A stretch of DNA of 34,585 nt, from IMG/VR virus record IMGVR_UViG_3300045988_064981, positions 1 through 34,585 of that record. One strand, written 5' to 3'. The translations under genes were made by a program, and so were the position numbers. Each line of letters starts with the position of its first letter. Position 1 is the stretch's first letter. Positions 11,332-31,823 of the stretch are shown piece after piece. Under the pieces are notes generated by a model. That model was not told the origin of the DNA. It saw nothing but the letters and a program-made list of their open reading frames with translations, and searched no databases. The DNA is from a virus.

Positions 11332-11354
11332 TTGCCAGGAAAAGGAGTGAGAGC

Positions 11355-13105: not shown

Positions 13106-13120
13106 CGGAGGGGGCAAAAA

Positions 13121-13408: not shown

Positions 13409-13420
13409 GGAGGCATTGAC

Positions 13421-14124: not shown

Positions 14125-14125
14125 A

Positions 14126-14560: not shown

Positions 14561-14572
14561 AAGGAGTAAAGC

Positions 14573-15160: not shown

Positions 15161-15172
15161 TGAGACACGGAG

Positions 15173-15204
15173 GCGGGCAGGGATATCCCTGCCCGCTATT
15201 TTTG
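15173..15204 (+). terminator. Intrinsic terminator/attenuator after the major tail gene
   Basis: 24-nt perfect palindrome GCGGGCAGGGATATCCCTGCCCGC followed by TATTTTTG. Confidence 0.75.
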
Positions 15205-15226
15205 AATATAAACGGGGAGGATCGAG

Positions 15227-15619
15227 ATGAAAGAGGTAACTGTGAGGGTTGCGGGGCAGGAGATCCCGCTGTATTACAACGGCTATGCGATGTACGCCGT
15301 GCGCGATCTGCTGGGTGAGGAAAAAATCTATGATGTATTGGCGCAGGACACACCGGAGGCGTTTGAAAAAACGTGCGAGATTGCGTCGATCCTTGCCACG
15401 CAGGGCGAATTATACCGCCGCTACATCGGCATGGACAAGGGGCACATCCTCTCCGCGCAGGTGCTGCGGCTGATCCTCCGCCCGGCGGACATGGTGGCGC
15501 TGCGCAAGGCGATCATGGACGCATTTGTGGCGGGGATGCAGGCGGAGCAGCCGGAGGACGCGGACGTTGACCTCGGTTTGCAGGAGCTGGACGCAAAAAA
15601 GAGCAAAAAAAAAGGCTGA
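15227..15619 (+). CDS. Tail assembly chaperone, short form (gpG-like)
   Basis: SD GGGGAGGA. It lies between the major tail and tape measure genes and ends in ...DAKKSKKKG within an A-rich slippery tract. Confidence 0.8.
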   Translation: MKEVTVRVAGQEIPLYYNGYAMYAVRDLLGEEKIYDVLAQDTPEAFEKTCEIASILATQGELYRRYIGMDKGHILSAQVLRLILRPADMVALRKAIMDAFVAGMQAEQPEDADVDLGLQELDAKKSKKKG

Positions 15620-15750
15620 CGCGCGCTGAATACATCCACTTGGGGCTGCTGCTCGGGCTGGACCCGCGCACGACCCTGATGATGCGCCCCGGCGAGGTTG
15701 CGGAGCTCGCCCAGCTGCGCGCGCCGCGGGAGAAAGGTGAGGACAGATGA
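15227..15750 (+). CDS. Tail assembly chaperone, long form (G-T-like), by -1 programmed frameshift in the A9 run 15605..15613
   Basis: The -1 frame from 15613 reads RLTRAEYIHLGLLLGLDPRTTLMMRPGEVAELAQLRAPREKGEDR and stops at 15750, overlapping the tape measure ATG (ATGA). Confidence 0.7.
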
Positions 15751-18700: not shown

Positions 18701-18923
18701 CGTCCCGTATGACGAGTTTGAGGCAGTGCTCCACCAGGGTGAGCGCGTGCTGACGGCAGCGGAGGCGCGCGTCTACAACGCCGCCGAAAAGAGCGGAAAG
18801 CTCACAAACAACAACGACAACTCCAAGACCGTCAACGTCGGCGGCATCACCATCAACGACGGCGGAAATGGCCGAAAGGTGGCGCGGCAGGTCGAAAAGG
18901 CCATCAGGAGGGCGCTGAGATGA
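15747..18923 (+). CDS. Tail tape measure protein
   Basis: 1058 aa. Coiled-coil rich, with a TP901-type core-like region (GISVDSLSSMLIENKAQFTSLGYGLDEAIGLLSMMELEGVNASQALAGLRAA). Confidence 0.9.
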   Translation: MSVTRTISTKLAIEGEAEYQAKVRECNAALKETGSALDLVNAKYDANDKSMEAVKARGEALEAMYDAQNKKLTESRAALENARQAQEKHGKTVDDLKKRLADATDELNKMTESGEDNEEQQKALKDEIDKLNKELGIAQNMYDAASKGVTNWTISANKAEADLYKLQRRIEENNKTMEDTPGTAKEAGDSLGYLGKMGEDAKSMIGDFLGKAAEMATLAGIIGITKQLGQALYDMADAYMEAAATIEKATGATKDGLNDMTNTAYEALAQTYTTLDNISGAVGEINTRFGVTGDDLERLTVMFAEFARITGKDVVGAVQQVSKIEKAWNIDMADTELLMDKLAKGAQASGISVDSLSSMLIENKAQFTSLGYGLDEAIGLLSMMELEGVNASQALAGLRAAANKLARAGKDSKDGIQEYIQAIKEAKTQTEAAKIGLEAFGEDAGGTLVEAIRSGRFELGEWTEMIATADGTLQATADTSKTFGEIWQNVKNQVTASIQEIGQQIDQMTGKTADALTQSDAMLADAQSNYEASSNRIAAASTVAAEYVARLDALEKQGVTTSEAQQEYNNLIEQLNTIMPELNLQLDEQTGLLKGGAEALLDNVEAWKQWATQQAMQDKYTDTLKAYGQAQVEVAENTVKRAEAQEKVNKAQAEYNAAYLLWQKALSEEDYDADIPSLEDAWKDAGATLRKAQTELENYDKALDDANETMEDCNEQIEAMGKVLDETTDTTVEDTEDMADSWEQYAESAGAAVEAINAELAALQEEYKAAYDTARTAIDGQISAFKEMHQATAQEAQAAAEALGKALESQIQYLAEYNANFEDLMSRNIDGIDKLASALADGSEESAAILAGLSDMTDEEIEDIIDKMGDVEKGKDVFAENVAKMQTDYDERMEGIRTKTQEVMEDVVQKLNESERAYASAASTGAAVAEGLQSQVGAIQAVADEINSILQSIGNMADQVSAKAGKIKKPGQSKNGTSAAVGLYSVPYDEFEAVLHQGERVLTAAEARVYNAAEKSGKLTNNNDNSKTVNVGGITINDGGNGRKVARQVEKAIRRALR

Positions 18924-19792
18924 GACAAAACGAGGCCATCCAGTGGATTAGCCCCAGTGGCGAGGCGATCACCATCGCCGCGTTGGGAACGCCGGTGCAT
19001 CTGGACGAGGTGCGCGGGCTGGACGGGTTGGAGCAGGACATCTACACCGTCAAGGGAAGCGGACAGGCGGGTTTGAGCGTGGCGGGCGCGACGCTGATGG
19101 AGCGGGAGATCGAGATCACGGTCTCCATCGCGCGCAACCACGTCCCCTACCGCCGTGCGCTTCTGCGCGCGTTTCGCCCGGCCTCTACGCCGGGCACGCT
19201 GGTATTCCGCCGCGGCGAAGAGTCGTGGCACATCTCCGCATATGTCGAGACTGCCCCGGTGTTTGAGCTGGGCGTGCTCGAGACGGGCACGATCACGCTG
19301 CTCTGCCCCTCCCCCGCGCTGCTGGCGGGCGATGCGGACGCAACGGGAAGCGTAGACATTGCCGAGTGGATCGACGACATCGAATTTGATTTTGAGATCC
19401 CCGCAGAAGGGCACACGTTGGCGCATCGTGCGCCGCAGCTGATCGTGGACGTGTACAACGACGGCGATCTGGAGGCGGGCACGCGGATCGTGTTTGCCGC
19501 CAACGGCGCGGCGAAAAACCCGAGCCTGGTCAACGTCCAGACGCAGGAGAAAATCAGCCTGACGATTACCTTGCAGGCGGGCGACCTGCTGGAGGTCAAC
19601 ACGGCCTACGGCAAAAAGCGCGTCACGCTGACGCGCGACGGGGCGCAGAGTAACGTATTTAACCTGCTGGACGCGGGCAGCACGTGGATGCAGATGCATC
19701 CGGGCGACAACTTTTTGAGATTTGCCGCGGACGAGGGCGCGGACAACCTCGACGTGCGGATCTATTCATCGTCGGCTTACTCCGGCGTGTAA
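18920..19792 (+). CDS. Distal tail protein (Dit, siphovirus tail component)
   Basis: ATGA overlap with the tape measure gene. 290 aa. Assigned by synteny. Confidence 0.7.
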   Translation: MRQNEAIQWISPSGEAITIAALGTPVHLDEVRGLDGLEQDIYTVKGSGQAGLSVAGATLMEREIEITVSIARNHVPYRRALLRAFRPASTPGTLVFRRGEESWHISAYVETAPVFELGVLETGTITLLCPSPALLAGDADATGSVDIAEWIDDIEFDFEIPAEGHTLAHRAPQLIVDVYNDGDLEAGTRIVFAANGAAKNPSLVNVQTQEKISLTITLQAGDLLEVNTAYGKKRVTLTRDGAQSNVFNLLDAGSTWMQMHPGDNFLRFAADEGADNLDVRIYSSSAYSGV

Positions 19793-19802
19793 GGAGGGGA
19801 GA

Positions 19803-20942
19803 TTGTTGGTATTCCAAGTATATTCGCCCGCGGGATCGGCGCTGGGGCTGGTGGAAGCCTATGAGAGCGTCACGTGGACGCGCCGCCTGTATGAGGCGGG
19901 AGAGATTGAGATCGTAGCCCCTGCCACGCCGGAGCATCTGGCGCTGCTCAAGGACGGCAACATCGTCGTGCGCGATATGACGGACGGCGATGCGGCGATC
20001 ATCGAGGGCGTGGAGCTGGAGCGCGACGAAGAGGGCAGCACGATCACCGCGACCGGGCAACTGCTTGCGGGCGTGCTGGCGCGCCGCATCGTCGCACAGG
20101 ACACCGCGCTGACCGGGGACGCGGAGAGCGTCATGCTCAAGCTCATCGGTGACAACTGTGTGAGCGTGGACGCCGCGCGCAAGATCCCCGGCATGAGCGT
20201 GCCCGACAGCCAGGGGCGCGGCGGCGAAGTCACCGAGTCAAAGGCGCTGGGCAAAACGGTGCTCAAGGCGCTGACCGACATTGCGGAGACGCAGGGCGTC
20301 GGGTTTAGGGTTTGCTGGCCGAGTTGGGCGGTGCAGATCGTCATGGGATTGGACCGCACCAAGGCGCAGACCGCAAACCCGCGCGCGATCCTGTCCGTGG
20401 AGGGCGAGACGCTGAATGCCATCAGCTACAAGCATGACAGCGCGGGCAGCGTCAACGCCGCGACGGTGTACTGCGATATGCGCAGCAGCGGCACGAGCCT
20501 CAACAGTTTTTCCGAGGCGGTCGGCTCCGCCTCGGGATTGGAACGCCGCGAGATCTATCTGACCGCATCGCCCAAGGACGCGGTGGTGACGGTGGAGATC
20601 CGCCCGGCGGACAAGGGCGGCGGCAAGGTGGTCACGACCGACTACACTGCGGGCGCGATCAACGTCGGCAAGCAGGCGCTTGCCGAATACGCCGTTGAGG
20701 ACGCAGTCAGCGGTCGCACGTCCAACCTCGGCGGGCTGGTGCTGCGGCAGGACTTTGATCTGGGCGACAAGGTGACGATTGTCAGCACCGAGTGGGGCAT
20801 CGAGCAGGACGCGGTGATTACCGAGACCACGGAGACCTACGACGCGGAGGGCGTGCAGGTTGAGATCGTATTCGGCAAGCGCTCCACGGTGCGGGAGCTG
20901 CTGACCAAAGATATAGACAAGGAGATGGGACGCAATGGCTGA
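19803..20942 (+). CDS. Tail-associated protein, Siphovirus Gp37-like
   Basis: TTG start (19803 or 19806) after AAGGAGGGGA. VYSPAGSALGLVEAYESVTWTRRLYEAGEIEIVAP resembles the Gp37-like N-terminus. Confidence 0.6.
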   Translation: MLVFQVYSPAGSALGLVEAYESVTWTRRLYEAGEIEIVAPATPEHLALLKDGNIVVRDMTDGDAAIIEGVELERDEEGSTITATGQLLAGVLARRIVAQDTALTGDAESVMLKLIGDNCVSVDAARKIPGMSVPDSQGRGGEVTESKALGKTVLKALTDIAETQGVGFRVCWPSWAVQIVMGLDRTKAQTANPRAILSVEGETLNAISYKHDSAGSVNAATVYCDMRSSGTSLNSFSEAVGSASGLERREIYLTASPKDAVVTVEIRPADKGGGKVVTTDYTAGAINVGKQALAEYAVEDAVSGRTSNLGGLVLRQDFDLGDKVTIVSTEWGIEQDAVITETTETYDAEGVQVEIVFGKRSTVRELLTKDIDKEMGRNG

Positions 20943-22056
20943 GTTGTATTTTCCGTTTGCGTCGGTCTCGGGTGACCGAAAGGTGGGCCCGGAGATCTAC
21001 GAGCGGATGCTGGGCGACATGTTTACGGCGGGTGTGTTTCCACGGGGCGAAATGTTGGCGGTCGCGCCGGCGAGCGGAATGCAGATCACGCTCAAGACCG
21101 GCGGCGCGGTGCTGATCCGCACGGACGCAACGTCCGCAGGTCCGCGCGGCTACCTGTACAGCAACACGGCGGCGCAGACGCTGACCTGCAATGTGGCCGA
21201 CGGCGTAGCCGGGCGCATTGACGCGGTTGTGCTGCGATGGAGCCGCACAGCGCGCAGCGTGACGGCGGCGATTGTGACGGGCACGCCTGCGGCAACGCCC
21301 ACCGCGCCCACGCCGACGCGGACAGCGGACACGTGGGAAATGTGTCTGGCACAAATCAGCGTTGCGGCGGGCGCGACGGAGATCACGGCGGCGCAGATCA
21401 CCGACACGCGCGAGACGGAGCTGTGCGGCATTGCATCCAGCATCGCGCAGCTGGACAGCGCGGATTTTTACGCCCAGCAGACGCAGCTGCTGAATAACTG
21501 GCTGGCCGATGCGGATGATGACGCCAAGGCGCAGCTTGCGCAGCAGGCGTCGGATTTTAACACCTGGTTTGAGGCGACCAAGACGAGCGCGACCGAATAC
21601 TTTGCCGAGCAGGAGACGACGTTTGAGAACTGGTTTGCTGGGATCAAAAACACGCTGGGCACGGATGTAGCGGGAAGCCTGGGCATGGCAGTCGAAGCGC
21701 TGCAAACCGACGTCGGGACGCTCAAGACCAATGTCTCCGCGCTGCAAACCACGGCGACGGGATTGCGCACCGATGTGGACGCAAAGCAGCCCAAGCGGAT
21801 CACAAGCACCAACGTCAGCGTGGCTACGTCGGCGTGGGTGGCGGACAGCACGTACAGCGACTATCCCAAGGCTGCAACTGTGTCCATCTCCGGCGTAACG
21901 GCAACCATGGTGCCGGAGGTGGTATTTGCACCGGGCGATGCGACCAGCGGCAATTATGCCCCGGTCGCCGTATGCGTGGCTGGTGGCGTGAAGGTTTTTG
22001 CGGCAGAAGCACCTGAAGCGGCGATTACGCTGCTGACGATTGTGGTATGGGGGTGA
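20935..22056 (+). CDS. Tail fibre / receptor-binding structural protein with central coiled-coil
   Basis: 373 aa. It follows the Dit and Gp37-like genes. Heptad-like segment LLNNWLADADDDAKAQLAQQASDFNTWFEATKTSATEYFAEQETTFENWF. Confidence 0.6.
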   Translation: MAELYFPFASVSGDRKVGPEIYERMLGDMFTAGVFPRGEMLAVAPASGMQITLKTGGAVLIRTDATSAGPRGYLYSNTAAQTLTCNVADGVAGRIDAVVLRWSRTARSVTAAIVTGTPAATPTAPTPTRTADTWEMCLAQISVAAGATEITAAQITDTRETELCGIASSIAQLDSADFYAQQTQLLNNWLADADDDAKAQLAQQASDFNTWFEATKTSATEYFAEQETTFENWFAGIKNTLGTDVAGSLGMAVEALQTDVGTLKTNVSALQTTATGLRTDVDAKQPKRITSTNVSVATSAWVADSTYSDYPKAATVSISGVTATMVPEVVFAPGDATSGNYAPVAVCVAGGVKVFAAEAPEAAITLLTIVVWG

Positions 22057-22060
22057 GTGT

Positions 22061-23338
22061 ATGGCAGTAGGACGGACAAATGCATCGGCAAAGGGCGGCG
22101 GGGTTGATTTGAGCATCGTGTACTCTGACACGCAGCCACCAACTGATGCGGGGGAGCTGTGGGTCAAAGACTCCGCCGCGGCGAAGAGCGTGTATGTTAC
22201 GCCGTATGCGGAGCTTGCGAATTACGTTGTCACTGAGGACACTGGATGCGTTAATACGACCAGGTTATATTGCGCAGGAGCCGGAAGCTACAATGGCAAG
22301 ATATACTGGATTGCGTGGTCCGGCAGCTTGTACGGTAGCGCAAAACTCTCTTTATACAGTTATAATCCACAGACAAATGCAGTAACGGCAGAGCTTAGTA
22401 ATTTTTTTACTATGTCCGCGTATCAAAATATGTCGAATGTAATTGCGGCTGAACTGAAAGGGAACAAGTTTTTTGTGGCATCGTCTGGCCCCGACCTCCG
22501 ATTAGCAGTGTTGGATATTGACACCTTGGTGTACACGATAAACACGAACGCAGAAATCCTTAACAATGATAATTCGAGTTACACGAACAGCAGATATGAC
22601 TTTGGGTTGTCTGCGGACGGAAGCAAATTATATAGCGGGGGAAATGATTCCAAGTACCTGTATGTCTACGACACAATAACAAAGACATCGACAACGTACT
22701 ATGGGAAGGTTGGCAAGAACCCTCAGTATTTTTTTGACGATGGAACTTATATCTATATCATCCATGGGTATGACAACAAAGCAATATCTGTGCTCCGATC
22801 GTCGAATTTTGATGTGGTTACAACGACCAGCGCACTGCCCGGTTATGTAAGAGCGTGCTTTATGGTTGGCGGATCAATATATATCGGTATAGGCCCGACC
22901 TCGATATATAAGTTGGAGTATAACGGTAATGCCATATCGTTTGTTCATGTTTCCGATTCTGCCCCGGAATGGGCAGAATCAACTGCTTATAATTCGGCAC
23001 AAAAGTATGGAGACTTGTTCGGGACCGTCGGCCAATATACACATAGTGCCTATGCAGCAATTGGCGATACGTTATATTGCATTTGTGCTGGTGGATCGGG
23101 CATATCGTCCAATGACGTGCCGATAAAACGTGTCAAGTTTTCGGCGGCGGCGTATGCGCATGACGCGCTGATCGTGACCACTACCGGAGCGCCCAAAAAC
23201 AGAACAAAACTGGTTACATCGGACGGGTTTAACGTCAAAATCAATGTCAACAAATTGTACAAGACAGACAACGCGGGCAACATGACCGAGGTCGACGGGT
23301 ACAGCAAAAATTTGGCCGGAGAGTGGGTCAAAATATAA
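22061..23338 (+). CDS. Kelch/beta-propeller-like repeat protein (probable host-recognition tail protein), AT-rich
   Basis: Six blade-like repeats (GKIYWIAW, GNKFFVAS, GSKLYSGG, GTYIYIIHG, GGSIYIGIG, GDTLYCICAGG). Codon usage is visibly AT-shifted relative to the flanks. Confidence 0.7.
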   Translation: MAVGRTNASAKGGGVDLSIVYSDTQPPTDAGELWVKDSAAAKSVYVTPYAELANYVVTEDTGCVNTTRLYCAGAGSYNGKIYWIAWSGSLYGSAKLSLYSYNPQTNAVTAELSNFFTMSAYQNMSNVIAAELKGNKFFVASSGPDLRLAVLDIDTLVYTINTNAEILNNDNSSYTNSRYDFGLSADGSKLYSGGNDSKYLYVYDTITKTSTTYYGKVGKNPQYFFDDGTYIYIIHGYDNKAISVLRSSNFDVVTTTSALPGYVRACFMVGGSIYIGIGPTSIYKLEYNGNAISFVHVSDSAPEWAESTAYNSAQKYGDLFGTVGQYTHSAYAAIGDTLYCICAGGSGISSNDVPIKRVKFSAAAYAHDALIVTTTGAPKNRTKLVTSDGFNVKINVNKLYKTDNAGNMTEVDGYSKNLAGEWVKI

Positions 23339-23351
23339 GGGGGGGCTTGCG

Positions 23352-23648
23352 ATGTGGACTTATGAAATGTATGCGGCACGCGACACGACTAACGAAAAAA
23401 TGAATCTTGTACGTGAGAGATTTGGCTTTGCCGGAAAGGATGCGTATTTTTTGCTGCGCGATGGAGTGGTTTACATGGTGCAATGGGCTGGACAATATCC
23501 GGAGCAGTACGGAGCAACGCTTGAAGAGGCGGCGGCTAATCACTGCACGGCACTAAATGCCGAAACCGATCCGCAGCCGGCATCGACAACCGACGCGGCG
23601 ACGATGGAGGCCGCGCTGAATGAGTTGGGGGTGATTACTCGTGAGTAA
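23352..23648 (+). CDS. Hypothetical protein (98 aa)
   Basis: SD AAGGGGGG, ATG at 23352. No motif recognised. Confidence 0.55.
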   Translation: MWTYEMYAARDTTNEKMNLVRERFGFAGKDAYFLLRDGVVYMVQWAGQYPEQYGATLEEAAANHCTALNAETDPQPASTTDAATMEAALNELGVITRE

Positions 23649-24060
23649 GGTAAGATCGGACATCCTCCGGCAGGCGCAGGAGATCCGCAAGGCGACACAG
23701 ACCCTCGCGGCCTACGCGCCGGACGAAGTGGCACTGGCGGCTCCTGCGGTGCTGTTTGACACATGGAGCGCGAGCGGGGTGGCCTATGCCAAGGGCGACA
23801 TCCGGCAGTACAACGGCCTGCTGTACCGCTGCGCACAGCCGCACACATCACAGTCTGACCGGACACCGTCCGCTGCTGAGTCCCTCTGGACTCGGATCGC
23901 AGACCCGACGCAGGAGTGGCCGGAGTGGATTCAGCCGACCGGGGCGCACGACGCATATGCCAAGGGCGCAAAGGTCAGCTATAACGGCAAGCACTGGGTT
24001 AGCACGGCTGACGCTAATGTGTGGGCGCCTGGAACATATGGTTGGGAGGAGGCGACCTGA
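23641..24060 (+). CDS. Protein with two carbohydrate-binding CBM5/12-like repeats
   Basis: AYAKGDIRQYNGLLYRCAQPHTSQSDRTPSAAESLW and AYAKGAKVSYNGKHWVSTADANVWAPG fit the Y-x-G-D/x-V-x-YNG...W pattern. Confidence 0.6.
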   Translation: MSKVRSDILRQAQEIRKATQTLAAYAPDEVALAAPAVLFDTWSASGVAYAKGDIRQYNGLLYRCAQPHTSQSDRTPSAAESLWTRIADPTQEWPEWIQPTGAHDAYAKGAKVSYNGKHWVSTADANVWAPGTYGWEEAT

Positions 24061-25310
24061 TGCACATCCGAGTCAAGATCACCCGCGACAGGAGCGGCAG
24101 GGTTGTGACGATGGAGATGGAGGACTATCTCAAGGGCGTGGTGCCGTCTGAAATCAAGGCGGAGACCTGTCCGATGGAGGCGCAAAAGGCACAGGCTATT
24201 GCCGCACGAACGTATGCCATCCGCAAGACCATCGACCGCCGCAGCAAGCCCTACGACGTGGACGATACCGCCGGATATCAGGCGTATGGAGCGCGACCGC
24301 GTCACAAAAACAGCGACGCGGCAGTGGAAGCAACGCGCGGACTGGTGCTGATGTACGGCGGCAAGCTCATTGACGCGGTCTACACCGACAGCAACGGCGG
24401 TCGCTGCGTGTCCTCCTTGGAGCGCTGGGGCAGTGCTGTCCCCTACCTGATCGACCAGCTCGACCCCTATGACAACTCCGGCAAGGTGCGCGGGCATGGT
24501 GTAGGACTGAGCCAGACCGGAGCTGCCACAAGGGGAAAAGCGGGGCAGACATGCGCGGAAATCCTCGGATTTTATTATCCGAGGGCGGTGATAAAAAAGC
24601 TGAAGGAGGCCGACAAGATGAATCTCGATGCAAAGCTGTCCGAGAATTTTACGCTGCGGGAATTTTATGACCCGGCGAACTATGTGGACGTGCTCAAGGG
24701 CAAGGCCGCACCCATCGTGCAGCCCAGCGACATTGACCACCGCATCATCGCCCTGCTGGAAAAGCTGCGGGCGAAGTACCGCCAGAAATGGCCGGGCGTG
24801 GTGATACGCATCCGACCGCATGGCGGCTACCGTCCCGATCCGCTGAACAAGCTGGTGGGCGGCGCACCCGGAAGCCAGCACCGCAAGGGCAACGCGGCGG
24901 ATTATAGCGTCGTGGTGCTTGGCAAGGCAATCGACGCGCCGACGCTGGCAGTCTGGACGGAGCATTACATGCAGGAGCTGGGCATCAAGGGCGGCATTGG
25001 GATGTACAAGGCCACCGACAATTACATCCATGTGGACGCGCGCGGAAAAAATGTCGCCTGGTACGACAGTTATTCTTCGGCCGGCTGCCCCGGACAGGGT
25101 GGTCGGCCTTGCACGTACCGCAAGGGCAGCAAGGGTGCGGGCGTGGTGCTGATCCAGCGGTATCTGGGCATCCCGGCAGATGGCAAATACGGCCCCAAAA
25201 CGATGGAGGCCGTGAAGGAATGGCAGGCGGAACACGGATGCACGCCGGACGGCATCTTTGGGCGCGAGACCAACCGCAAGATGGGCTATGTGCTGCCCTG
25301 GGAGGTGTAA
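24060..25310 (+). CDS. Three-domain endolysin: SpoIID/LytB-like, Peptidase_M15 (DUF882-type) and PG_binding_1
   Basis: YLKGVVPSEI...EAQKAQAIAARTYA (SpoIID-like). FTLREF...SQHRKGNAADY...IHVDAR (M15 zinc ligand pattern). GAGVVLIQRYLGIPADGKYGPKTMEAVKEWQAEHGCTPDGIFGRET (PG-binding). Confidence 0.8.
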   Translation: MHIRVKITRDRSGRVVTMEMEDYLKGVVPSEIKAETCPMEAQKAQAIAARTYAIRKTIDRRSKPYDVDDTAGYQAYGARPRHKNSDAAVEATRGLVLMYGGKLIDAVYTDSNGGRCVSSLERWGSAVPYLIDQLDPYDNSGKVRGHGVGLSQTGAATRGKAGQTCAEILGFYYPRAVIKKLKEADKMNLDAKLSENFTLREFYDPANYVDVLKGKAAPIVQPSDIDHRIIALLEKLRAKYRQKWPGVVIRIRPHGGYRPDPLNKLVGGAPGSQHRKGNAADYSVVVLGKAIDAPTLAVWTEHYMQELGIKGGIGMYKATDNYIHVDARGKNVAWYDSYSSAGCPGQGGRPCTYRKGSKGAGVVLIQRYLGIPADGKYGPKTMEAVKEWQAEHGCTPDGIFGRETNRKMGYVLPWEV

Positions 25311-25875: not shown

Positions 25876-26163
25876 ATGAATCTCGATTGGACGATGATCA
25901 CGGGTATTGCCGCTGCGGTGGCGTGTGTGGGTATGGCGCTGGTGGTTATCCTCTGGCTGTGCGGCAAAATCAGCTCCGACCGCGTGACGCAGGTCTGGCG
26001 CTGGGTGTGCTGGCTGGTGCAGGCGGCTGAGCAACTATTTGGAGCCAAAACAGGCGAACAGAAGCATGACTATGTTGTGGACATGCTCAAGCAGCTGGGG
26101 ATCAAGGTCACGGACGAGATCGACGCGCTGATTGAGGCGGCTGTGCGCGAGTTGACGGACTAA
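25876..26163 (+). CDS. Holin, LL-H family-like
   Basis: SD GGAGGAA. N-terminal TM ITGIAAAVACVGMALVVILWL and C-terminus EQKHDYVVDMLKQLGIKVTDEIDALIEAAVRE, typical of LL-H-type holins. Confidence 0.65.
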   Translation: MNLDWTMITGIAAAVACVGMALVVILWLCGKISSDRVTQVWRWVCWLVQAAEQLFGAKTGEQKHDYVVDMLKQLGIKVTDEIDALIEAAVRELTD

Positions 26164-26181
26164 GGAGGGAGCTGGTGTGCG

Positions 26182-26403
26182 ATGCTTGCAGAGATCACGC
26201 GCGCCGGACTGAGCCGTGCACAGGTGGGAGCGCTGATTGACGAGTGGGTGTTTTCGGCGCGGGACAGACAGATCCTGCGCCTGAAGCTGCTGGACGGGCA
26301 GACCTATGAGCAAATTGCAGAGGCGGTGCGTCCGCAGATGTCGCCGCGGCAGATCAAGCGGATTGTGACCTGCCGGGTGGATGATTTGCTCAAGCGAGTA
26401 TGA
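26182..26403 (+). CDS. Stand-alone sigma-70 region-4 / LuxR-like HTH protein (73 aa)
   Basis: SARDRQILRLKLLDGQTYEQIAEAVRPQMSPRQIKRIV has a region-4-like pattern. It is the last gene before a strong terminator. Confidence 0.55.
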   Translation: MLAEITRAGLSRAQVGALIDEWVFSARDRQILRLKLLDGQTYEQIAEAVRPQMSPRQIKRIVTCRVDDLLKRV

Positions 26404-26405
26404 TG

Positions 26406-26439
26406 TTGGGGTGGGCTTCGGCCTGCCCCAATTTTTTTT
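26406..26439 (+). terminator. Rho-independent terminator ending the late/lysis operon
   Basis: ttggggtgggc-ttcg-gcctgccccaa stem followed by tttttttt. Confidence 0.8.
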
Positions 26440-26451
26440 GATTTTTGGGGC

Positions 26452-26547
26452 GAAAATCTTTGGAAAGGTGTTGACAATATACGATTAATCATATATAATA
26501 ATAGATGTAAGGGGGAGATGGAAATCCCCGGAACAAACGAGGAGGAC
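26452..26547 (+). repeat. Promoter/operator/leader cassette, copy 1 (~90% identical to 27962..28057)
   Basis: gaaaatctt..ggtgTTGACAatatacgattaatcataTATAATaata..gggggagatggaaatcccc..acgaggagga. Confidence 0.9.
26471..26499 (+). promoter_or_regulatory. Consensus sigma-A-type promoter with embedded palindrome (accessory operon 1)
   Basis: TTGACA (26471..26476), 17 nt, TATAAT (26494..26499). The spacer holds atatacgattaatcatatat, a 19/20 palindrome. Confidence 0.75.
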
Positions 26548-26554
26548 ATGGAAA

Positions 26555-26899
26555 ATGAAAAAGGAACTTGCAAACGAGATTAAGGCTGTGGCACACGAGA
26601 TGGGTCTTGACGCTTGGGACCGCGAATACGAGTACGTTGGCATCCGCGTGCAGGAGCAGGAGTTTGAGCTGGGTGAGATCACTCACAAGTCTCACAACTG
26701 GGGCTACAACGACAATTATGAGACCGTGGACTTTGGTGAGGAGCTTGACGGCATCTGCTGCACCCGCCTGGAGGAGGCCGAAAAAAGCGAATACTTTGGT
26801 GAACATATCGCCGTCATCTGCGGCAACCACGCTACGTTTGGCGAGGACGACGGTGAGATCATCATCGAGGATCCCGTGGTTGTCAAGATCATCAGATAA
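26555..26899 (+). CDS. Highly acidic protein (114 aa), unknown family
   Basis: SD GAGGAGGA, 7 nt before the ATG. 28 D/E versus 10 K/R. It is the first gene after cassette copy 1. Confidence 0.75.
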   Translation: MKKELANEIKAVAHEMGLDAWDREYEYVGIRVQEQEFELGEITHKSHNWGYNDNYETVDFGEELDGICCTRLEEAEKSEYFGEHIAVICGNHATFGEDDGEIIIEDPVVVKIIR

Positions 26900-26913
26900 T
26901 TGGAGCAGCATCA

Positions 26914-27552
26914 ATGCCTGACGTAAAAGCAAATCTCAAATGCAGGGAGTGTGGGATCCCCATCCCACACCCCACTGCGTATCAAACGCTCTGCGACGAG
27001 TGCGCAAAGCGCCTGAAAAGTGCAATGGCGCTCCGGCCGCGTGTATGCGTCGAGTGCGGGGTTACATTTGACGGTTATCCCAAATCTAAGCGCTGTCCGG
27101 CTTGCCGGCATGAGCGCGTGCTGCGGCTTCGGGCGGGGTATCGGGCTGCGGAAAAGGCGGGCAAACAGCGCAAAATTGGCGAGACATATCTGTGCGAGAG
27201 ATGCGGCAAGCCGTATACGCTGACCGGCGGATTGCAGCGATATTGCCCGGATTGCAAGGACGATGCGGTGCTGGAGGCCAATCGCGCTGCGTCCCGCGAG
27301 TATATGCGGGCGCACCGGGGCGAGCAGAAGCGATCTAAACACGCCGTCAGATATTGCGTGGTCTGCGGGAGGGATATCTCCGCGAACACCAGCACTATCA
27401 CGTGCAGCCCGGAGTGCGCGCTGGAGCGGAGACGGCAGCGGCAGCGCGCTGCGGATGCTCGGCGCGGAGTCGGGCGCGGCTCACAGGATTACACCCCAAC
27501 AAAAGCACGCGGGGTCCCGCGTACCCTGAAGTCGGCAAAAAAGGAGGAATAA
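26914..27552 (+). CDS. Multi-zinc-ribbon protein (4 CxxC...CxxC units), paralogue of 28729..29901
   Basis: CRECG..CDEC, CVECG..CPAC, CERCG..CPDC and CVVCG..CSPEC, with a basic C-terminus. It is collinear with the N-terminal half of the longer paralogue. Confidence 0.8.
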   Translation: MPDVKANLKCRECGIPIPHPTAYQTLCDECAKRLKSAMALRPRVCVECGVTFDGYPKSKRCPACRHERVLRLRAGYRAAEKAGKQRKIGETYLCERCGKPYTLTGGLQRYCPDCKDDAVLEANRAASREYMRAHRGEQKRSKHAVRYCVVCGRDISANTSTITCSPECALERRRQRQRAADARRGVGRGSQDYTPTKARGVPRTLKSAKKEE

Positions 27553-27553
27553 T

Positions 27554-27763
27554 ATGGCAGTATCAGACGCCCAGAGAGCGGCGTCCGCGCGCTGGGAAAA
27601 AAAGAACCGCAAGGCCGTAGCCTGCACGCTTCCTCGAGAGGAGGCAGAAGCGTTTTACGCCGCGGTAAAAGAGGACGGCACAAGCGTCAACGATGTGCTC
27701 AAACGATGGATCCGTGACTATATGGCGTGCAGGGCTGACAAAAATGAGTCTTGCAAAACGTGA
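27554..27763 (+). CDS. RHH-like small DNA-binding protein (69 aa)
   Basis: SD AAGGAGGA. KAVACTLPREEAEAFYAAVKEDGTSVNDVLKRWIRDYM fits strand-helix-helix. It is homologous to an internal segment of the 28729..29901 product. Confidence 0.65.
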   Translation: MAVSDAQRAASARWEKKNRKAVACTLPREEAEAFYAAVKEDGTSVNDVLKRWIRDYMACRADKNESCKT

Positions 27764-27927
27764 GTGGCTGTGCTATCTTATAGTTGCATACCGTGTCAGG
27801 CACGCCTCCTCGCGCGCCTGTGGATTGAAATGCGAATAGCAATGCAGACGATGCTTTTTCCAACCTTGCTCTTGCGGGGCGATGCGATGCTCGTGGTATG
27901 CGGAGCGCATCTCAGCATCCGACGCAG

Positions 27928-27961
27928 AGAGAGTCCCGCAAGGGACTCTCTTCTTTTTTTT
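27928..27961 (+). terminator. Rho-independent terminator ending accessory operon 1
   Basis: agagagtccc-gcaa-gggactctct followed by tcttttttttt. Confidence 0.85.
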
Positions 27962-28057
27962 GAAAATCTTCAAAAAGGTGTTGACAATATACGATTAATC
28001 GTATATAATAATAAGTGTCAAGGGGAGATGGAAATCCCCAAGAACAACGAGGAGGAT
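27962..28057 (+). repeat. Promoter/operator/leader cassette, copy 2
   Basis: gaaaatctt..ggtgTTGACAatatacgattaatcgtaTATAATaata..aggggagatggaaatcccc..acgaggagga. Confidence 0.9.
27981..28009 (+). promoter_or_regulatory. Consensus promoter with perfect 20-bp palindrome ATATACGATTAATCGTATAT (accessory operon 2)
   Basis: TTGACA (27981..27986), 17 nt, TATAAT (28004..28009). The palindrome at 27987..28006 overlaps the -10. Confidence 0.75.
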
Positions 28058-28064
28058 GATTGAG

Positions 28065-28736
28065 ATGTACGTATACGATCGTGGACTGTATGTATTTAAT
28101 CGTGACGAGATGAGATTTATGGACGGCAAGACCGTCCTCATAATCAACACCATGCGCCGCGCCCCCGACGAAAGTCGCCCGTGCCACAACACCGACGAGA
28201 TCATCGGCAAGGTGATTGACGTCGATGCCCTCCCGTACGACATTGCACATGATGCGTATGTCGTGCCGGACGTCGAGGCCATCAAGGCGGCGGTTGCCGA
28301 AAAATATCCTGTTGATTGCGCTGAGCTGGATGACGGCTCCGTGGGATGGACGAACATAGACGAGGAGCCGTGCTGCGAGTATACATACGGGGTGTGCATC
28401 CCGAGTATGTATAACATCCCTGATGAGTTGGACGATGATGAGCAGCTTGAGTGGTGGGCAGATCATCACTGGGAGCGCGACGAGGGCGAGCCGGAGTGGT
28501 ATGATACGCTCAAGGAGGCTCTCGCGGCAGCTGACAAAGCGTTTTCTGCCGGACAGCCCATCCCCTGGATCTACATCCAAAAATTTAACGTCAAGACCGG
28601 CGATCCGGAGTACGAGCTGGATGAGATCGAGCTGGATGCGGATGAGGACGGCAATTGGGACATGGGGTCGGACGATCCGCTGGCGTGGAAAGAGTACAAT
28701 CTGGCTTGTGACGAGGATGAGGTAGACAATGCCTGA
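28065..28736 (+). CDS. Highly acidic protein (223 aa), unknown family
   Basis: ATG at 28065, 9 nt after GGAGG (the ATG at 28056 abuts the SD). The C-terminal third is nearly poly-D/E (DELDDDEQLEWW..DPEYELDEIELDADEDG..CDEDEVDNA). Confidence 0.75.
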   Translation: MYVYDRGLYVFNRDEMRFMDGKTVLIINTMRRAPDESRPCHNTDEIIGKVIDVDALPYDIAHDAYVVPDVEAIKAAVAEKYPVDCAELDDGSVGWTNIDEEPCCEYTYGVCIPSMYNIPDELDDDEQLEWWADHHWERDEGEPEWYDTLKEALAAADKAFSAGQPIPWIYIQKFNVKTGDPEYELDEIELDADEDGNWDMGSDDPLAWKEYNLACDEDEVDNA

Positions 28737-29901
28737 GATCAGAGCCAACGTTATTTGCCGAGAGTGCGGGACACCAATCCCGCACCCTACTCGGTATCAA
28801 AAACTTTGCGACGAGTGCCAGCAAAAAGCAATCCACAAGGGCAAAAAAGTTGAACGCATTTGCACCGAGTGCGGTCGGAAATTTATCGGCGGGCCCAGTG
28901 CCAAGAGATGCCCGGACTGCAAGCGTGAGCGCGACCTAGAGAGAGCGCGGCTGCACCAGCAAGCCAAGGCTGCGGGGCACGCGCGGGAGCTTGGAAGGAC
29001 GTATATCTGTGAGGCGTGCGGAAAACCTTACGTCCTCAATAGTGGGATGCAAAAATATTGCCCGGACTGCATGGAGGAGCAACGCAAAAAAGATACCCGT
29101 GAAAAAGTGAATGACTACATGCGTGCCAATAAAGGCAAGTATCCCAAATACCCGCGTATGAGAGTATGCGTGATCTGCGGTAAGATACTCGAGCCGGGGA
29201 CGCGCGAGATTACATGCAGCCCGGAATGTGCGGAAAAAAGAGCGTTGCAACAATACGACGCGTCAATGGGTAATCCTGATCCGGACTATCACCCGACAAA
29301 GGGCGCCGGGCATCCGCAAAAATCCAGACGCCAGATGACTGAGCTCTCGACGTCAGGAGCGACCGATCAGTTAGTGCAACCCCACAAAGCAGTCTGTTGC
29401 AAATTGCCCGTAGATGAGGCTAGGTCGTTTGCGAATGCGGCTCTTGTTAATGGGATGTCCGCATCACAACTCTTGCAGCAGCTGGTCCGCGACTACATGG
29501 CAAACAAAGACATAGCGGCGTTGGCGGCCGCGGCTGAAAAATTACCGAAGCACGCGCGCCGAGATGTAAAAAAAACTTGTCAAAAGTGCGGTATCGAATT
29601 TATGGGAGATCGCATTGCAAAATACTGCCCCGCATGCAAGATAGCGGTCCAGCGCCAGCAGACGTTAGACTACTCAAGACGCATGCGCCCAAAGACCAGC
29701 CGCCATGTAGGCGAGGTCTATCCGTGCAAGCGCTGTGGTAATGATTATGTACTAGAGACTCCTGGTCAGCAGTATTGCCGTAAGTGTGCCAAGATTGCAT
29801 ATAGAGAGTATGCAGCCAATGCATATCAAAATAAGCGAGCCCGCGAAGCGCAAAAAAAAGAAGCAACGCCGGAGGAAGAGTCACAAAATACAGATCAGTG
29901 A
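28729..29901 (+). CDS. Multi-zinc-ribbon protein with internal RHH-like segment (6 CxxC...CxxC units)
   Basis: 390 aa. The N-terminal ~200 aa are collinear with 26914..27552. The middle segment KAVCCKLPVDEARSFANAALVNGMSASQLLQQLVRDYM matches the 27554..27763 product. Two further zinc ribbons follow at the C-terminus. Confidence 0.8.
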   Translation: MPEIRANVICRECGTPIPHPTRYQKLCDECQQKAIHKGKKVERICTECGRKFIGGPSAKRCPDCKRERDLERARLHQQAKAAGHARELGRTYICEACGKPYVLNSGMQKYCPDCMEEQRKKDTREKVNDYMRANKGKYPKYPRMRVCVICGKILEPGTREITCSPECAEKRALQQYDASMGNPDPDYHPTKGAGHPQKSRRQMTELSTSGATDQLVQPHKAVCCKLPVDEARSFANAALVNGMSASQLLQQLVRDYMANKDIAALAAAAEKLPKHARRDVKKTCQKCGIEFMGDRIAKYCPACKIAVQRQQTLDYSRRMRPKTSRHVGEVYPCKRCGNDYVLETPGQQYCRKCAKIAYREYAANAYQNKRAREAQKKEATPEEESQNTDQ

Positions 29902-29903
29902 TA

Positions 29904-29930
29904 AGCCGCCCCACATGGGGCGGCTTTTTT
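29904..29930 (+). terminator. Rho-independent terminator ending accessory operon 2
   Basis: gccgcccc-acat-ggggcggc followed by tttttt. Confidence 0.85.
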
Positions 29931-29961
29931 GTCCCTAAAATGTCCCCATTTTGACACCGAA

Positions 29962-30002
29962 GTGTCCCCTGCATGACATCGTGCAGGGGGCGCTTTTTTT
30001 TT
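29962..30002 (+). terminator. Second tandem terminator
   Basis: gtgtcccctgca-tgacatcg-tgcagggggcgc (12-bp stem with two G-U pairs) followed by ttttttttt. Confidence 0.7.
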
Positions 30003-30029
30003 ACAATTTTATCAGGAGGTGGAGAAAAG

Positions 30030-30437
30030 ATGAATGGATATGGCAATCCTTACGGCTACCCCTATAGCCCCGGATATCAGCAGCAGATGTACGGGCAGCA
30101 AATGCCGCAGCGGTATGAGCTGGTCAAAGTCAGCGGACGCGGCGGCGTGGACGCGCTCCGGGTTGCGCCGCGAAGCGAGCTGCTTGCAATGGACACGTCC
30201 CGCGCCGACGTGCTGCTCGCGTGGTACATCCAGGCGGATGACGCAGGTTATAAGTCGGTGACGCCCTACGTGCTGACACCTTACACCGATCCCGCGCCGA
30301 TTGATGCAACGAACATCGAGCAGAGGCTCAAGAGATTGGAGGAGATCATTGATGGCAAATCCGTTGCTGGCAAGCCTACAAAAGCAGACCGCGCCGCAGC
30401 AGCCCGCCAACCCGTTGCAGATGCTGGCGGAGTTTAG
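30030..30437 (+). CDS. Hypothetical protein with Tyr/Gly/Gln/Pro-rich N-terminus
   Basis: SD AGGAGGTGGAG, ATG at 30030. NGYGNPYGYPYSPGYQQQMYGQQMPQRYELVKVSGRGGVDALRV... Confidence 0.65.
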   Translation: MNGYGNPYGYPYSPGYQQQMYGQQMPQRYELVKVSGRGGVDALRVAPRSELLAMDTSRADVLLAWYIQADDAGYKSVTPYVLTPYTDPAPIDATNIEQRLKRLEEIIDGKSVAGKPTKADRAAAARQPVADAGGV

Positions 30438-30621
30438 GCGCTTTGCGTCCGGCATCATCCCGTTGCAGATGCTGGCGGAGTTTAGGCGCTTTGCGTCCGG
30501 CATCACCCCGCAGCAGGCGCAGACAAAAGTCGAAGAGCTGCTGCAATCCGGGCAAATGTCGCAGGAGCAGTTTGAGAGCCTAAAAAAACCGGCGCAGGAT
30601 TTTATGGAGTTTCTTAAATAG
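30352..30621 (+). CDS. Gln-rich small protein carrying an internal 16-aa perfect duplication
   Basis: SD GGAGGAG, ATG at 30352. PLQMLAEFRRFASGI occurs twice. It overlaps the previous ORF by 86 nt. Confidence 0.55.
   Translation: MANPLLASLQKQTAPQQPANPLQMLAEFRRFASGIIPLQMLAEFRRFASGITPQQAQTKVEELLQSGQMSQEQFESLKKPAQDFMEFLK
30411..30506 (+). repeat. Perfect 48-bp tandem duplication (2 units, differing only at the last base)
   Basis: cccgttgcagatgctggcggagtttaggcgctttgcgtccggcatca[t/c] at 30411..30458 and 30459..30506. In frame (16 codons). Confidence 0.95.
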
Positions 30622-30674
30622 CCGGTGCGCAACGGCTATTTGTGAATAAATCTATCAAAAAAGGAGTGTGCGTA

Positions 30675-31334
30675 ATGGACAATAATTACAGTCTCTCTGA
30701 TCTGCGTGCGGCGGTCGGCGACGAAGACAAGGGCTTCGGCGGCGGCATGGGCGCATGGTGGATCATCATCCTCTTTTTGTTTGTCTTTATGGGCGGCGGC
30801 TTTGGCGGCTGGAATCGTCAGCAGGTGCAGCCGGGCGAGTTTGGCCAGTATGCGACCGCTGCCAGCCAGCAGCAGATCCTGTTTGGGCAGCAGTTTGGCG
30901 AGATCAACGACCGCCTGACGGCGCTGGGCAACGGCGTGGCGTCGCTGGGCTACGATATGCAGGGCAGCCTCGGTCAGCTTGGCAAGGACATCGCCCTCGG
31001 CCAGGCGGGCACCAACACCACGATCATGCAGACCGGCAACGCCTTGCAGCAGCAGATCGCGTCCTACTGCTGTGAAAACAGGCTGGCAACCGCCAACCTC
31101 TCGGCGCAGATCGACCGTCAGACCTGCGACATTACCACCGCGATCCACGCAGAGGGCGAAGCGACGCGCAACCTGATCCAGACCAGTGAGATTCAGCGGC
31201 TCCGCGACAAGGTCGCTGGGCTTGAGATGGACAGCCGGATGTGCGGCGTAGTCCGCTATCCCATGTCCTACTCCTACAACGCCGGACCCTCCCCGTTTTG
31301 CGGGGGCGGTTGCAATTGCGGCGTGAATATGTAA
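30675..31334 (+). CDS. Membrane protein, Gly/Gln-rich with Cys motifs (unknown family)
   Basis: SD AAAGGAG, ATG at 30675. TM segment GAWWIIILFLFVFMGGGFGGW. Motifs YCCENR and QTCDI, and C-terminus FCGGGCNCGVNM. Confidence 0.7.
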   Translation: MDNNYSLSDLRAAVGDEDKGFGGGMGAWWIIILFLFVFMGGGFGGWNRQQVQPGEFGQYATAASQQQILFGQQFGEINDRLTALGNGVASLGYDMQGSLGQLGKDIALGQAGTNTTIMQTGNALQQQIASYCCENRLATANLSAQIDRQTCDITTAIHAEGEATRNLIQTSEIQRLRDKVAGLEMDSRMCGVVRYPMSYSYNAGPSPFCGGGCNCGVNM

Positions 31335-31370
31335 CCAACTGAGCAATGGCCCATTAGGCCGACAACATGA

Positions 31371-31399
31371 GCGGCAGGGTGTAAACCCTGCCGCTTTTT
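31371..31399 (+). terminator. Rho-independent terminator
   Basis: gcggcaggg-tgtaaa-ccctgccgc followed by ttttt. Confidence 0.75.
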
Positions 31400-31418
31400 G
31401 AAGAAAGGAGTTTGTAAT

Positions 31419-31823
31419 ATGGCACGCAATCTGATCTATACGGTAAACACCACGGGCGCCGCCGCGCCGATCGGCAGCACCGTCCCTGTGGGCAGCATCA
31501 TCCGGCGGTACGGCAAGTGCATCAGCGCCGAGGGCGAGAGTATCGTGCTGCTTGAGCCGGGAGATTATCTTGTGACGATGACTGCGACCGCGACGGCAGC
31601 GACCGTCGGAAACGTGGCGCTTGGCATCCAGCAGGACGGCGTCGCCGTGCCGGGAGCGACCGCAACGGAGACCGTTGCGACAGCAGGCACCGAATACGTC
31701 AATCTGTCGTTCGCCCCCATCGTGCGCGTGAGATGCTGCGGCAATGCGCGTCTCACCGTTGTGGTTGCCGGCACGACTGAGCCGACGATCACCAACCTTG
31801 CGATTGGAGTGGTCCGCGTATGA
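31419..31823 (+). CDS. BclA C-terminal-domain-like (TNF/C1q-like jelly-roll) protein without collagen repeats
   Basis: SD AAAGGAG. The pattern PGDYLVTMTATATAATVGNVALGIQQDGVAVPGATATETV...VNLSFAPIVRV...ARLTVVVAG...NLAIGVVRV resembles exosporium BclA-CTD-type domains by eye. Confidence 0.5.
   Translation: MARNLIYTVNTTGAAAPIGSTVPVGSIIRRYGKCISAEGESIVLLEPGDYLVTMTATATAATVGNVALGIQQDGVAVPGATATETVATAGTEYVNLSFAPIVRVRCCGNARLTVVVAGTTEPTITNLAIGVVRV

Follow-up and report, generated by a model that had tools for sequence, protein, structure and literature searches.

Two accessory modules headed by one promoter cassette

The window analysed here, a 34,585-nt stretch of viral DNA (IMG/VR record IMGVR_UViG_3300045988_064981, positions 1 to 34,585), carries two tandem accessory operons, each headed by a copy of one noncoding cassette of about 96 bp (26452-26547 and 27962-28057). 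Within each cassette a consensus promoter holds a 20-bp palindrome, a candidate operator, and in related loci the type of this palindrome goes along with the type of a small regulator gene, represented in the window by the gene for p69. Both operons, called modules 1 and 2 in the following, have the same layout of terminator, cassette, cargo, zinc-ribbon unit, ribbon-helix-helix (RHH) unit and terminator.

Module 1
26405-26440, + strand: intrinsic terminator T0 (hairpin 26405-26432), a 12-bp stem with T-run that closes the late/lysis unit
26452-26470, + strand: A-rich segment of cassette 1, GAAAATCTTTGGAAAGGTG, 5' of the -35
26471-26499, + strand: promoter 1, matching the consensus in 12/12 positions (TTGACA 26471-26476, 17-bp spacer, TATAAT 26494-26499)
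26477-26496: operator copy 1, a type A palindrome, ATATACGATTAATCaTATAT, with one mismatch (A for G at 26491)
26512-26529, + strand: leader inverted repeat copy 1, GGGGA-GATGGAAA-TCCCC, about +7 to +24 from the predicted start
26539-26545, + strand: Shine-Dalgarno (SD) sequence GAGGAGG, 9 nt 5' of ATG 26555
26555-26899, + strand: p114, cargo of family F14, acidic (isoelectric point, pI, 4.4)
26914-27552, + strand: p212, zinc-ribbon protein, basic (pI 9.7), with four CxxC...CxxC zinc ribbons and a long helix after each
27554-27763, + strand: p69, RHH-like, type RHH69, last gene of module 1, starting 1 nt after the p212 stop codon
27764-27926, + strand: noncoding 3' region between the p69 stop codon and T1
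27927-27960, + strand: intrinsic terminator T1 (hairpin 27927-27952), closing module 1 directly before cassette 2

Module 2
27962-27980, + strand: A-rich segment of cassette 2, GAAAATCTTCAAAAAGGTG
27981-28009, + strand: promoter 2, 12/12 (TTGACA 27981-27986, 17-bp spacer, TATAAT 28004-28009)
27987-28006: operator copy 2, the perfect 20-bp palindrome ATATACGATTAATCGTATAT
28022-28039, + strand: leader inverted repeat copy 2, GGGGA-GATGGAAA-TCCCC
28049-28055, + strand: SD sequence GAGGAGG, 9 nt 5' of ATG 28065
28065-28736, + strand: F01, cargo, 223 aa, pI 4.05, with 58 aspartate and glutamate residues
28729-29901, + strand: p390, a fusion of four zinc ribbons, an RHH-like segment (residues 220-258) and two more zinc ribbons
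29903-29926 and 29959-29996, + strand: two tandem intrinsic terminators, closing module 2

Pairwise alignment of the two cassettes gives 82 identical positions of 96 without gaps, or 85 of 97 with one gap, and a repeat search of the window returned them as a 95-nt family with 86% identity. The conservation reported in an earlier, sequence-only reading of this DNA is thus confirmed, but its figure of about 90% was slightly too high, the actual identity being 85-88%. Promoters that match the consensus perfectly are rare in this genome: the unique sequence holds three (mean of 0.0035 in 2000 shuffles), namely those of cassettes 1 and 2 and the phage early promoter. In both cassettes the palindrome takes up the spacer and reaches into the first bases of the -10. 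The same reading had described the promoters, the perfect palindrome of copy 2, the single mismatch of copy 1 and the GGGGA-N8-TCCCC repeat ahead of the SD sequence, and all of these were recovered. The mismatch at 26491 is private to the window and one relative (L058); L034, L049 and L053 have the perfect palindrome. No further copy of ATATACGATTAATCGTATAT was found in the window at up to three mismatches (chance expectation 0.07). The A-rich segment upstream of the promoter is kept in both copies, in the relatives and even in the distant type C and E cassettes introduced below, and looks like an UP element.

Hairpins with T-runs lie before each cassette and at the end of each operon, as had been proposed, so that both units have the structure by which morons are recognised, a promoter of their own at the 5' end and a factor-independent terminator at the 3' end. 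The earlier reading had taken the units to be insulated and separately controlled; as one operator type is common to both cassettes, the operons look co-regulated rather than separately controlled.

The similarity between the two units extends well beyond the cassettes. The N-terminal 200 residues of p390 are 45% identical to p212, and its residues 220-258 are 46% identical to p69. At the DNA level, about 57% of positions are identical in both the zinc-ribbon coding sequence and the RHH core, as compared to 85-88% in the cassettes; the 50-nt stretches that precede the cassettes are unrelated (32% identity). p114 and F01, the first genes behind the two copies, are unrelated to each other, in agreement with the sequence-only reading. 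That reading had seen two operons sharing a promoter cassette; judged by these comparisons the shared part is larger, and the two units are paralogues as whole modules. It had also placed the first gene of module 2 at 28056 (226 aa), which we correct to ATG 28065 (223 aa), because ATG 28056 adjoins the SD sequence directly and reads ATA in the relative L025. Since the paralogous genes are only 57% identical, the duplication is old. Taken together with this age, the identity of the cassettes means that they are constrained or homogenised and do not represent a recent neutral duplicate, which supports the earlier suggestion that the cassette itself is under selection. Absence of the cassette from relatives, named as a result that would speak against this suggestion, was looked for, and the cassette is present in all close relatives.

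The operator type follows the stand-alone regulator gene

Relatives were collected by means of the zinc-ribbon protein family (27 clusters at E<1e-3 among 5.8 billion), a degenerate leader pattern in metagenomes, and exact look-ups of p69 and its homologues. This resulted in about 25 informative loci, mostly from human gut metagenomes. Their palindromes fall into five types, each of which goes with its own regulator. Two of these regulator families are RHH-like, the others belong to Xre-type helix-turn-helix (HTH) proteins.

Type A: TATACGATTAATCGTATA; regulator RHH69 (beta-strand KAVACTL); window, L025, L026, L028 and L049-L058 (14 loci)
Type B: T(A/C)TACGCT(C/A)TAGCGTATA, shifted 2 bp toward the -10; regulator RHH72 (KAITCVL), about 62% identical to RHH69; L001, L029/L030 and L043/L044
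Type C: TACCAC-N7-GTGGTA; regulator of a 115-126-aa Xre-HTH family, RHH absent or reduced to 38 aa; L024, L039 and L045
Type D: TATACACG-N5-CGTGTATA; regulator a diverged member of the type C HTH family; L046
Type E: TTATCCT-N4-AGGATTA; regulator a 73-aa Xre protein; L048

All five types have the palindrome in the 17-bp spacer between TTGAC(A/G) and TATAAT, extending into the -10. Where both cassettes of a genome could be typed, they carry one and the same operator type (A/A in the window and in L026, B/B in L001). A comparison of 29 cassettes shows hexamers, leader repeat and SD sequence to be essentially invariant, and the operator is perfect in 22 of the 24 type A spacers. The association was also predictive: ten loci (L049-L058) were picked solely because they encode exact p69, and type A was found in all 17 of their full cassettes. 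In L039, a type C locus, the RHH protein is truncated to 38 aa with loss of its N-terminus and beta-strand, and the zinc-ribbon gene is intact.

The comparison of the window (type A) with L001 (type B) localises the change. The zinc-ribbon gene (93% identity), the sigma-like gene upstream of the modules (92%), cargo F01 (91%) and the 3' untranslated region (3'UTR; 90%) are highly similar, whereas the cassettes are at 74-77% and the RHH gene is at 70%. Thus, operator and RHH gene have diverged together. In the sequences compared here, the operator type switches when, and only when, the stand-alone regulator gene switches. The sequence-only reading had named two RHH proteins as candidate binders of the palindrome, p69 and the RHH segment of p390. 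Covariation with the operator supports p69; the p390 segment does not co-vary.

The immunity repressor was considered as a binder as well and set aside. The operators at the phage early promoter are of a different form (GTACACC-N3-GGTGTAC), and therefore the accessory operator is not the immunity operator and the immunity repressor is not its binder.

The leader repeat and a conserved 3' region

In the minimum-free-energy fold of the leader, GGGGA and UCCCC pair in a stem of 5 bp that closes a loop of 8 nt, and UGU and ACA pair in a short stem below; this predicted hairpin would lie only a few nucleotides from the predicted 5' end. Of 29 cassettes, 27 have the stem unchanged, and the loop is conserved as much as the stem. 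In L039 (type C) the repeat takes the diverged form GGGA...TCCC, and in L046 (type D) the form GGGC-CACC-GCCC. As the repeat persists beside these operators, it is independent of the regulator type. From its sequence, the element could act either as a 5' hairpin of the mRNA, in stability or translation, or as a second DNA site for a constant component. Binding of a CsrA-type protein at GGA in the repeat loop and the SD sequence was considered and set aside. In an Rfam covariance-model scan of 26100-30200, which includes leader and 3'UTR, every match was far below the gathering score.

The noncoding region behind p69 (27764-27926) is conserved as well. About 110 nt are invariant in seven relatives, and overall identity is 89-99% in relatives; this conservation holds also where the identity of the neighbouring RHH gene is down to about 60-70%. 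A long hairpin is predicted here by RNAalifold, for which the sequences are too similar to test pairing. The region could be a 3'UTR-derived RNA or a protein-binding site.

Products of the two modules

The cargo proteins p114 and F01 match no known family in Pfam, PHROGs, NCBIfam or PADLOC. The cargo of related modules is likewise mostly small and acidic (F10, pI 4.6; a 61-aa protein in L024, pI 4.05); distant operons contain a 480-aa pentapeptide-repeat protein and a 245-aa hexapeptide-repeat protein, both of the beta-helix repeat kind.

The AlphaFold model of p212 (predicted local distance difference test score, pLDDT, 85) is a string of four units, each made of a zinc ribbon and a long helix. 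A fold search of the PDB gave no significant match, and the matches in BFVD were confined to proteins of uncultured gut phages with automatic names. Sequence profiles returned generic zinc ribbons for p212, with no enzymatic domain, toxin-family match or PADLOC match, and a PDB sequence search with p114, F01, p212 and p69 returned nothing significant. Zinc-ribbon gene and regulator gene always directly adjoin or overlap, with a gap of 1 nt in the window and an overlap in L045, L046 and L048. In addition, zinc ribbons and RHH are fused in p390, in a 178-aa protein of L031 and in a 364-aa protein of L018. This arrangement indicates a functional link between the two. In L020-L023 the homologue P0007 is encoded by a single gene flanked by those for integrase and lysin, with no regulator gene beside it, which argues against a role as a toxin.

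For p69, the evidence of an RHH fold is weak but consistent. The model, computed as a monomer, has an extended segment (residues 18-27) followed by two helices (28-41 and 45-61), in keeping with the strand-helix-helix core of about 45 residues expected in the RHH superfamily (Arc/MetJ/CopG/ParG). The best Foldseek matches, none of them significant, are the RHH proteins NikR and ParD2, and profile searches point to ParG (E=0.025; 15.1 bits, below the cut-off of 21.4) and AvtR (E=0.11). PF10723 (RepB-RCR_reg) is recorded as a weak match on the p69 gene. The family is tiny: the p69 search found three clusters, all from this phage group. Exact p69 occurs in 212 blocks of the sequence collection.

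Variation and movement of the modules

The slot between the SD sequence and the zinc-ribbon gene is mosaic. It contains F14, F14 with a 269-aa protein, F02 with F03, F10, F10 with F01, or F01 alone. Module 2 as a whole is also variable, being complete in the window, L025, L049, L051, L053-L055, L057 and L058, absent from L052, and reduced to a remnant in L028, L039, L043, L050 and L056, where the -35 is fused straight to the p390 start codon. Remnants of cassette 2 were located at 8305-8352 of L039, 8412-8466 of L043, 6411-6442 of L050 and 6408-6443 of L052. At the remnant junction (...GGTGTTGACAATAG joined to ATGCCTGAG) the terminator and the -35 are retained and the p390 start codon follows; the breakpoint in L052 is the centre of the operator. 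The p390 copies behind these remnants have neither a -10 nor an SD sequence.

In L039/L040 (6000-9511), from a phage whose portal is P22-like, the module, with type C operator, Xre-HTH protein, zinc-ribbon protein, truncated RHH and p390, has terminase genes on one side and replication genes on the other. As this phage is unrelated, the module moves between phage types. A separate observation concerns L034 (1-9400), which has lysis genes, the sigma-like gene and cassette 1 with cargo F14 in common with the window but apparently a different tail region, which suggests mosaic exchange close to or at the boundary between lysis and accessory genes.

Neither a distant-mode blastn search with 26100-30100 nor a megablast search with 7600-25300 matched any of 50,697 GenBank phage records. 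The closest relatives of the capsid protein, at about 44% identity, are in Lactobacillus phages. The window thus represents a phage group without a cultured relative. An exact search of IMG/VR for promoter plus operator gave 0 matches. The 16-nt core of the palindrome gave 14, none of which lies in a matching promoter context, and these are therefore regarded as chance matches. The 18-nt leader repeat was found in IMG/VR on the L001/L016 contig and in one chance match (L017). In genome contigs, a scan with p212 confirmed no relative, and the leader pattern gave chance matches only (Nitrospira, Verrucomicrobiales and a Bacillota metagenome-assembled genome). On L012 (549-620), an unrelated IMG/VR contig, TTGACA-TTATACGTTTGAGCGTATAA-CAT is followed by TTATACGATTAATCGTATAA, with two TATACG-N6-CGTATA palindromes at a promoter-like site; this half-site is either a coincidence or a sign of related repressor specificity elsewhere.

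Genome setting

The window begins and ends with an exact direct repeat of 119 bp (1-119 and 34467-34585) and is therefore a complete, circularly assembled genome, that of a temperate gut phage of 34,466 bp. Nearly all genes are on the + strand, the structural genes coming first. The surroundings of the modules are as follows.

24021-25310: endolysin, followed by holin-like genes
26182-26403: p73, a sigma-70-region-4-like protein of 73 aa, encoded by the last gene ahead of terminator T0
32191-32217: bidirectional terminator 3' of a stretch of five small genes (30030-32134)
32319-33488, - strand: tyrosine integrase

The gene order is thus p73, the two cassette-led units, five small genes and the integrase. 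p73 shows weak matches to sigma-70 region 4 and LuxR-type HTH domains. Its exact sequence occurs on 304 contigs, and one virome annotation labels it 'ECF sigma factor'. The five genes between module 2 and the integrase are on the + strand and are conserved in many relatives. One of them encodes a 230-aa protein (phrog_16490) in which a hydrophobic segment is predicted, another a 141-aa protein (31398-31823) with a sub-threshold match to the BclA C-terminal domain. The five could be further accessory or conversion genes.

The spacer of the early promoter, a perfect TTGACA-18-TATAAT (34522-34551, equivalent to 56-85), contains the palindrome AGTACACC-GAT-GGTGTACT. Just downstream is a second copy (GGTACACC-AAT-GGTGTACT), and a divergent promoter with 11 of 12 consensus positions lies at 34458-34430 (- strand). 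The first rightward open reading frame (105-320, 71 aa) reads '...KRMSISLPPELERAV...' and is RHH-like by eye. The region 34430-34585/1-320 is probably the lysis-lysogeny switch.

Proposed mode of control and alternatives

Our preferred reading, which we consider likely, is that each cassette contains a strong sigma-A promoter, which the regulator encoded by the operon itself represses, that p69 controls both promoters of the window, and that the leader repeat is a separate element. According to this proposal, A-rich segment, TTGACA, 17-bp spacer and TATAAT would form a constitutively strong promoter independent of activators, with the operator for the repressor placed in the spacer and at the edge of the -10. 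Host RNA polymerase would fire both promoters once the DNA becomes available. As p69 accumulates, it would bind ATATACGATTAATCGTATAT in both promoters and block the polymerase, i.e. exert negative autoregulation on module 1 and repression in trans on module 2. The result would be a fast burst of expression followed by a low, self-limited level, and the flanking terminators would shield both units from read-through of the late genes. The genes between leader/SD and the zinc-ribbon gene would constitute a swappable slot for cargo, mostly small acidic proteins, for which the label anti-defence is suggested by analogy.

Several points weigh against this reading. All of its functional steps, i.e. 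start sites, binding and expression, are deduced from sequence. The type A and B loci are close relatives, and therefore the many concordant loci amount to few independent events, about five operator/regulator switches in all. The assignment of p69 as an RHH protein rests on sub-threshold profile matches, a monomer model with a pLDDT of 69 and PDB matches that are not significant (E>1). For the leader, folding z-scores are weak (-0.4 to -2.4), and among the 29 cassettes one compensatory stem change (A-U to C-G, L001 copy 1) stands beside one disruptive change (an A.G mismatch in L030). Finally, the cargo proteins match no known anti-defence, defence or toxin family in the four databases named above.

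Among the alternatives, the best supported is a difference in the use of the modules, and we regard it as possible, though clearly less probable than the preferred reading. The cargo would consist of conversion or defence genes expressed from the prophage, as in classical morons; the autorepressor would keep their expression in the lysogen steady and low, and they would benefit the host or exclude other phages rather than act early against host defence. The position of the modules between lysis genes and integrase, which is the usual one for morons, would suit this, as would the promoter and terminator of each module and the presence, absence or truncation of module 2 among otherwise similar phages. 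Moreover, with an operator unlike that of the immunity system, the modules would escape silencing by the phage repressor in a lysogen. On the other hand, no cargo protein matches any PADLOC defence model, small and mostly acidic orphans together with two beta-helix repeat proteins are a profile more typical of inhibitors than of defence enzymes, and in L039 the module has early and replication genes around it, in a phage of another type.

A more far-reaching reading, to which we give a small chance, is that the multi-zinc-ribbon protein and the interchangeable RHH/HTH regulator form an undescribed two-component control and effector unit of anti-defence islands in phages of gut Bacillota. The regulator would repress at the spacer operator, and the zinc-ribbon protein, or the invariant RHH domain of p390, would bind the invariant GGGGA-N8-TCCCC as a second, post-initiation or translational layer; the cargo (F14, F01, F02, F03, F10 and the pentapeptide- and hexapeptide-repeat proteins) would be new anti-defence proteins.

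The zinc-ribbon protein and the DNA-binding protein might instead be a toxin-antitoxin (TA)-like pair, in part fused, with the palindrome as its autoregulatory operator and the cargo as passengers. We consider this unlikely. Antitoxins typically swap their DNA-binding domains, and the exchange of RHH for Xre-HTH in the partner, the constant contact or overlap of the two genes and the zinc-ribbon/RHH fusions in p390, L031 and L018 are all as such a pair would have them. A toxin gene would be expected to be accompanied by its antitoxin gene throughout, but the zinc-ribbon homologue stands alone in L020-L023, and in L039 the zinc-ribbon gene is intact beside an RHH that has lost its DNA-binding strand. 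Furthermore, where a toxin fold would be expected, p212 has neither an enzymatic domain nor a toxin-family or structural match.

Binding of the palindrome by a protein other than p69, i.e. p212, p390, p73 or a host factor, is in our view quite improbable. The multi-zinc-ribbon proteins p212 and p390 are basic and plausibly bind nucleic acids, and p73 has an HTH and is encoded directly upstream of cassette 1. None of the three phage candidates, p390 being considered for its RHH segment, could be retained as the determinant of operator specificity, as none co-varies with the operator: type A and type B genomes differ little in p212 (91-93% identity) and p73 (92%), and a single type of p390 RHH domain occurs in A, B and C genomes. 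In addition, there is no p73 gene beside the L039 module, and it is the stand-alone regulator gene alone that switches with the operator.

That the cassettes are alike simply through recent duplication or gene conversion, with a palindrome that has no regulatory role or serves as a recombination site for cassette shuffling, is very improbable: the deletion breakpoints within cassette 2 (L039, L043, L050 and, at the operator centre, L052) and the mosaic of cargo between a conserved leader and a conserved zinc-ribbon gene would fit it, but the duplication is old by the 57% identity of the flanking paralogous genes, palindromes of five types, each with its own regulator, share one position in the promoter, the operator is perfect in nearly all type A spacers, and no recombinase gene is associated with the modules.

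Relation to known systems

In its logic, the arrangement resembles most closely the anti-CRISPR operons with their associated regulator genes (acr-aca), an analogy that does not establish membership. A 2026 study (PMC13551039) reports that the RHH protein Aca14 has its binding site, an inverted repeat, across part of the -10 and represses both its own operon and one next to it. According to that study, many Aca proteins have binding sites before adjacent operons as well as structured motifs in 5' untranslated regions (5'UTRs; PMC13551039), and Aca2 is a further case of an acr-aca operon repressed by its Aca protein (PMC6765145). Common to these operons and the modules are the strong promoter with an inverted repeat overlapping the -10, variable small genes at the start and the gene of a small DNA-binding protein at the end (p69 in module 1), the same operator before a neighbouring operon, regulators of HTH or RHH families at the same position in related operons, and an inverted repeat in the 5'UTR, comparable to the RNA motifs of Aca1 and Aca2. 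There are differences, too. No cargo gene in our modules is a known acr or anti-defence gene, the conserved multi-zinc-ribbon protein beside the regulator has no acr-aca counterpart, the leader repeat does not resemble the DNA operator, in contrast to the RNA site of Aca2, and the hosts are presumably uncultured gut Bacillota instead of Proteobacteria. The likeness of p69 to Aca14 is one of described architecture.

A moron, as known from phages of the HK97/HK022 type, is an autonomous promoter-gene-terminator unit inserted between conserved genes. Our modules have the promoter, the factor-independent terminators, the site between lysis and integration genes and the variable presence in common with morons. 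They differ in being two tandem units under one operator type and one proposed repressor, and in having an internal slot of swappable cargo with conserved regulator and zinc-ribbon genes rather than being a single-gene insertion.

Switching of the operator together with the regulator is familiar from the immunity regions of heteroimmune lambdoid phages and from the RHH repressors of the P22 Arc/Mnt type. There, as here, a palindromic operator lies within or overlaps the core promoter, and repressor gene and operator diverge together as flanking genes stay similar. In contrast to those systems, the control found here is on accessory operons and not on the lysis-lysogeny switch, which in the window has a different palindrome. 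Type II TA operons with RHH or Xre antitoxins likewise have tightly coupled genes, an autoregulatory palindrome at the promoter and interchangeable DNA-binding domains. Here, unlike in those operons, there is no recognisable toxin, the zinc-ribbon gene is partnerless in some phages, and additional cargo lies upstream.

Overall, the regulatory arrangement is well known, whereas these operons are undescribed; what they add are natural operator/regulator swaps within one scaffold and an unexplained zinc-ribbon partner. The swaps (A/RHH69, B/RHH72, C and D/Xre-HTH, E/Xre) offer a ready system for studies of RHH and HTH specificity and may also be used for orthogonal repressible promoters in gut Firmicutes. 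The cassette, with its consensus promoter, regulator-matched palindrome and conserved leader, is a compact and portable handle by which a slot for exchangeable cargo can be recognised in temperate phages of uncultured Bacillota from the human gut. Shared regulatory sequences have already been used to find anti-defence genes in archaeal viruses, a strategy described as 'regulatory sequence-based discovery' (PMC11065993). If the analogy to Aca systems holds, searches with the cassette would in the same way yield new anti-defence candidates from phages without cultured relatives.

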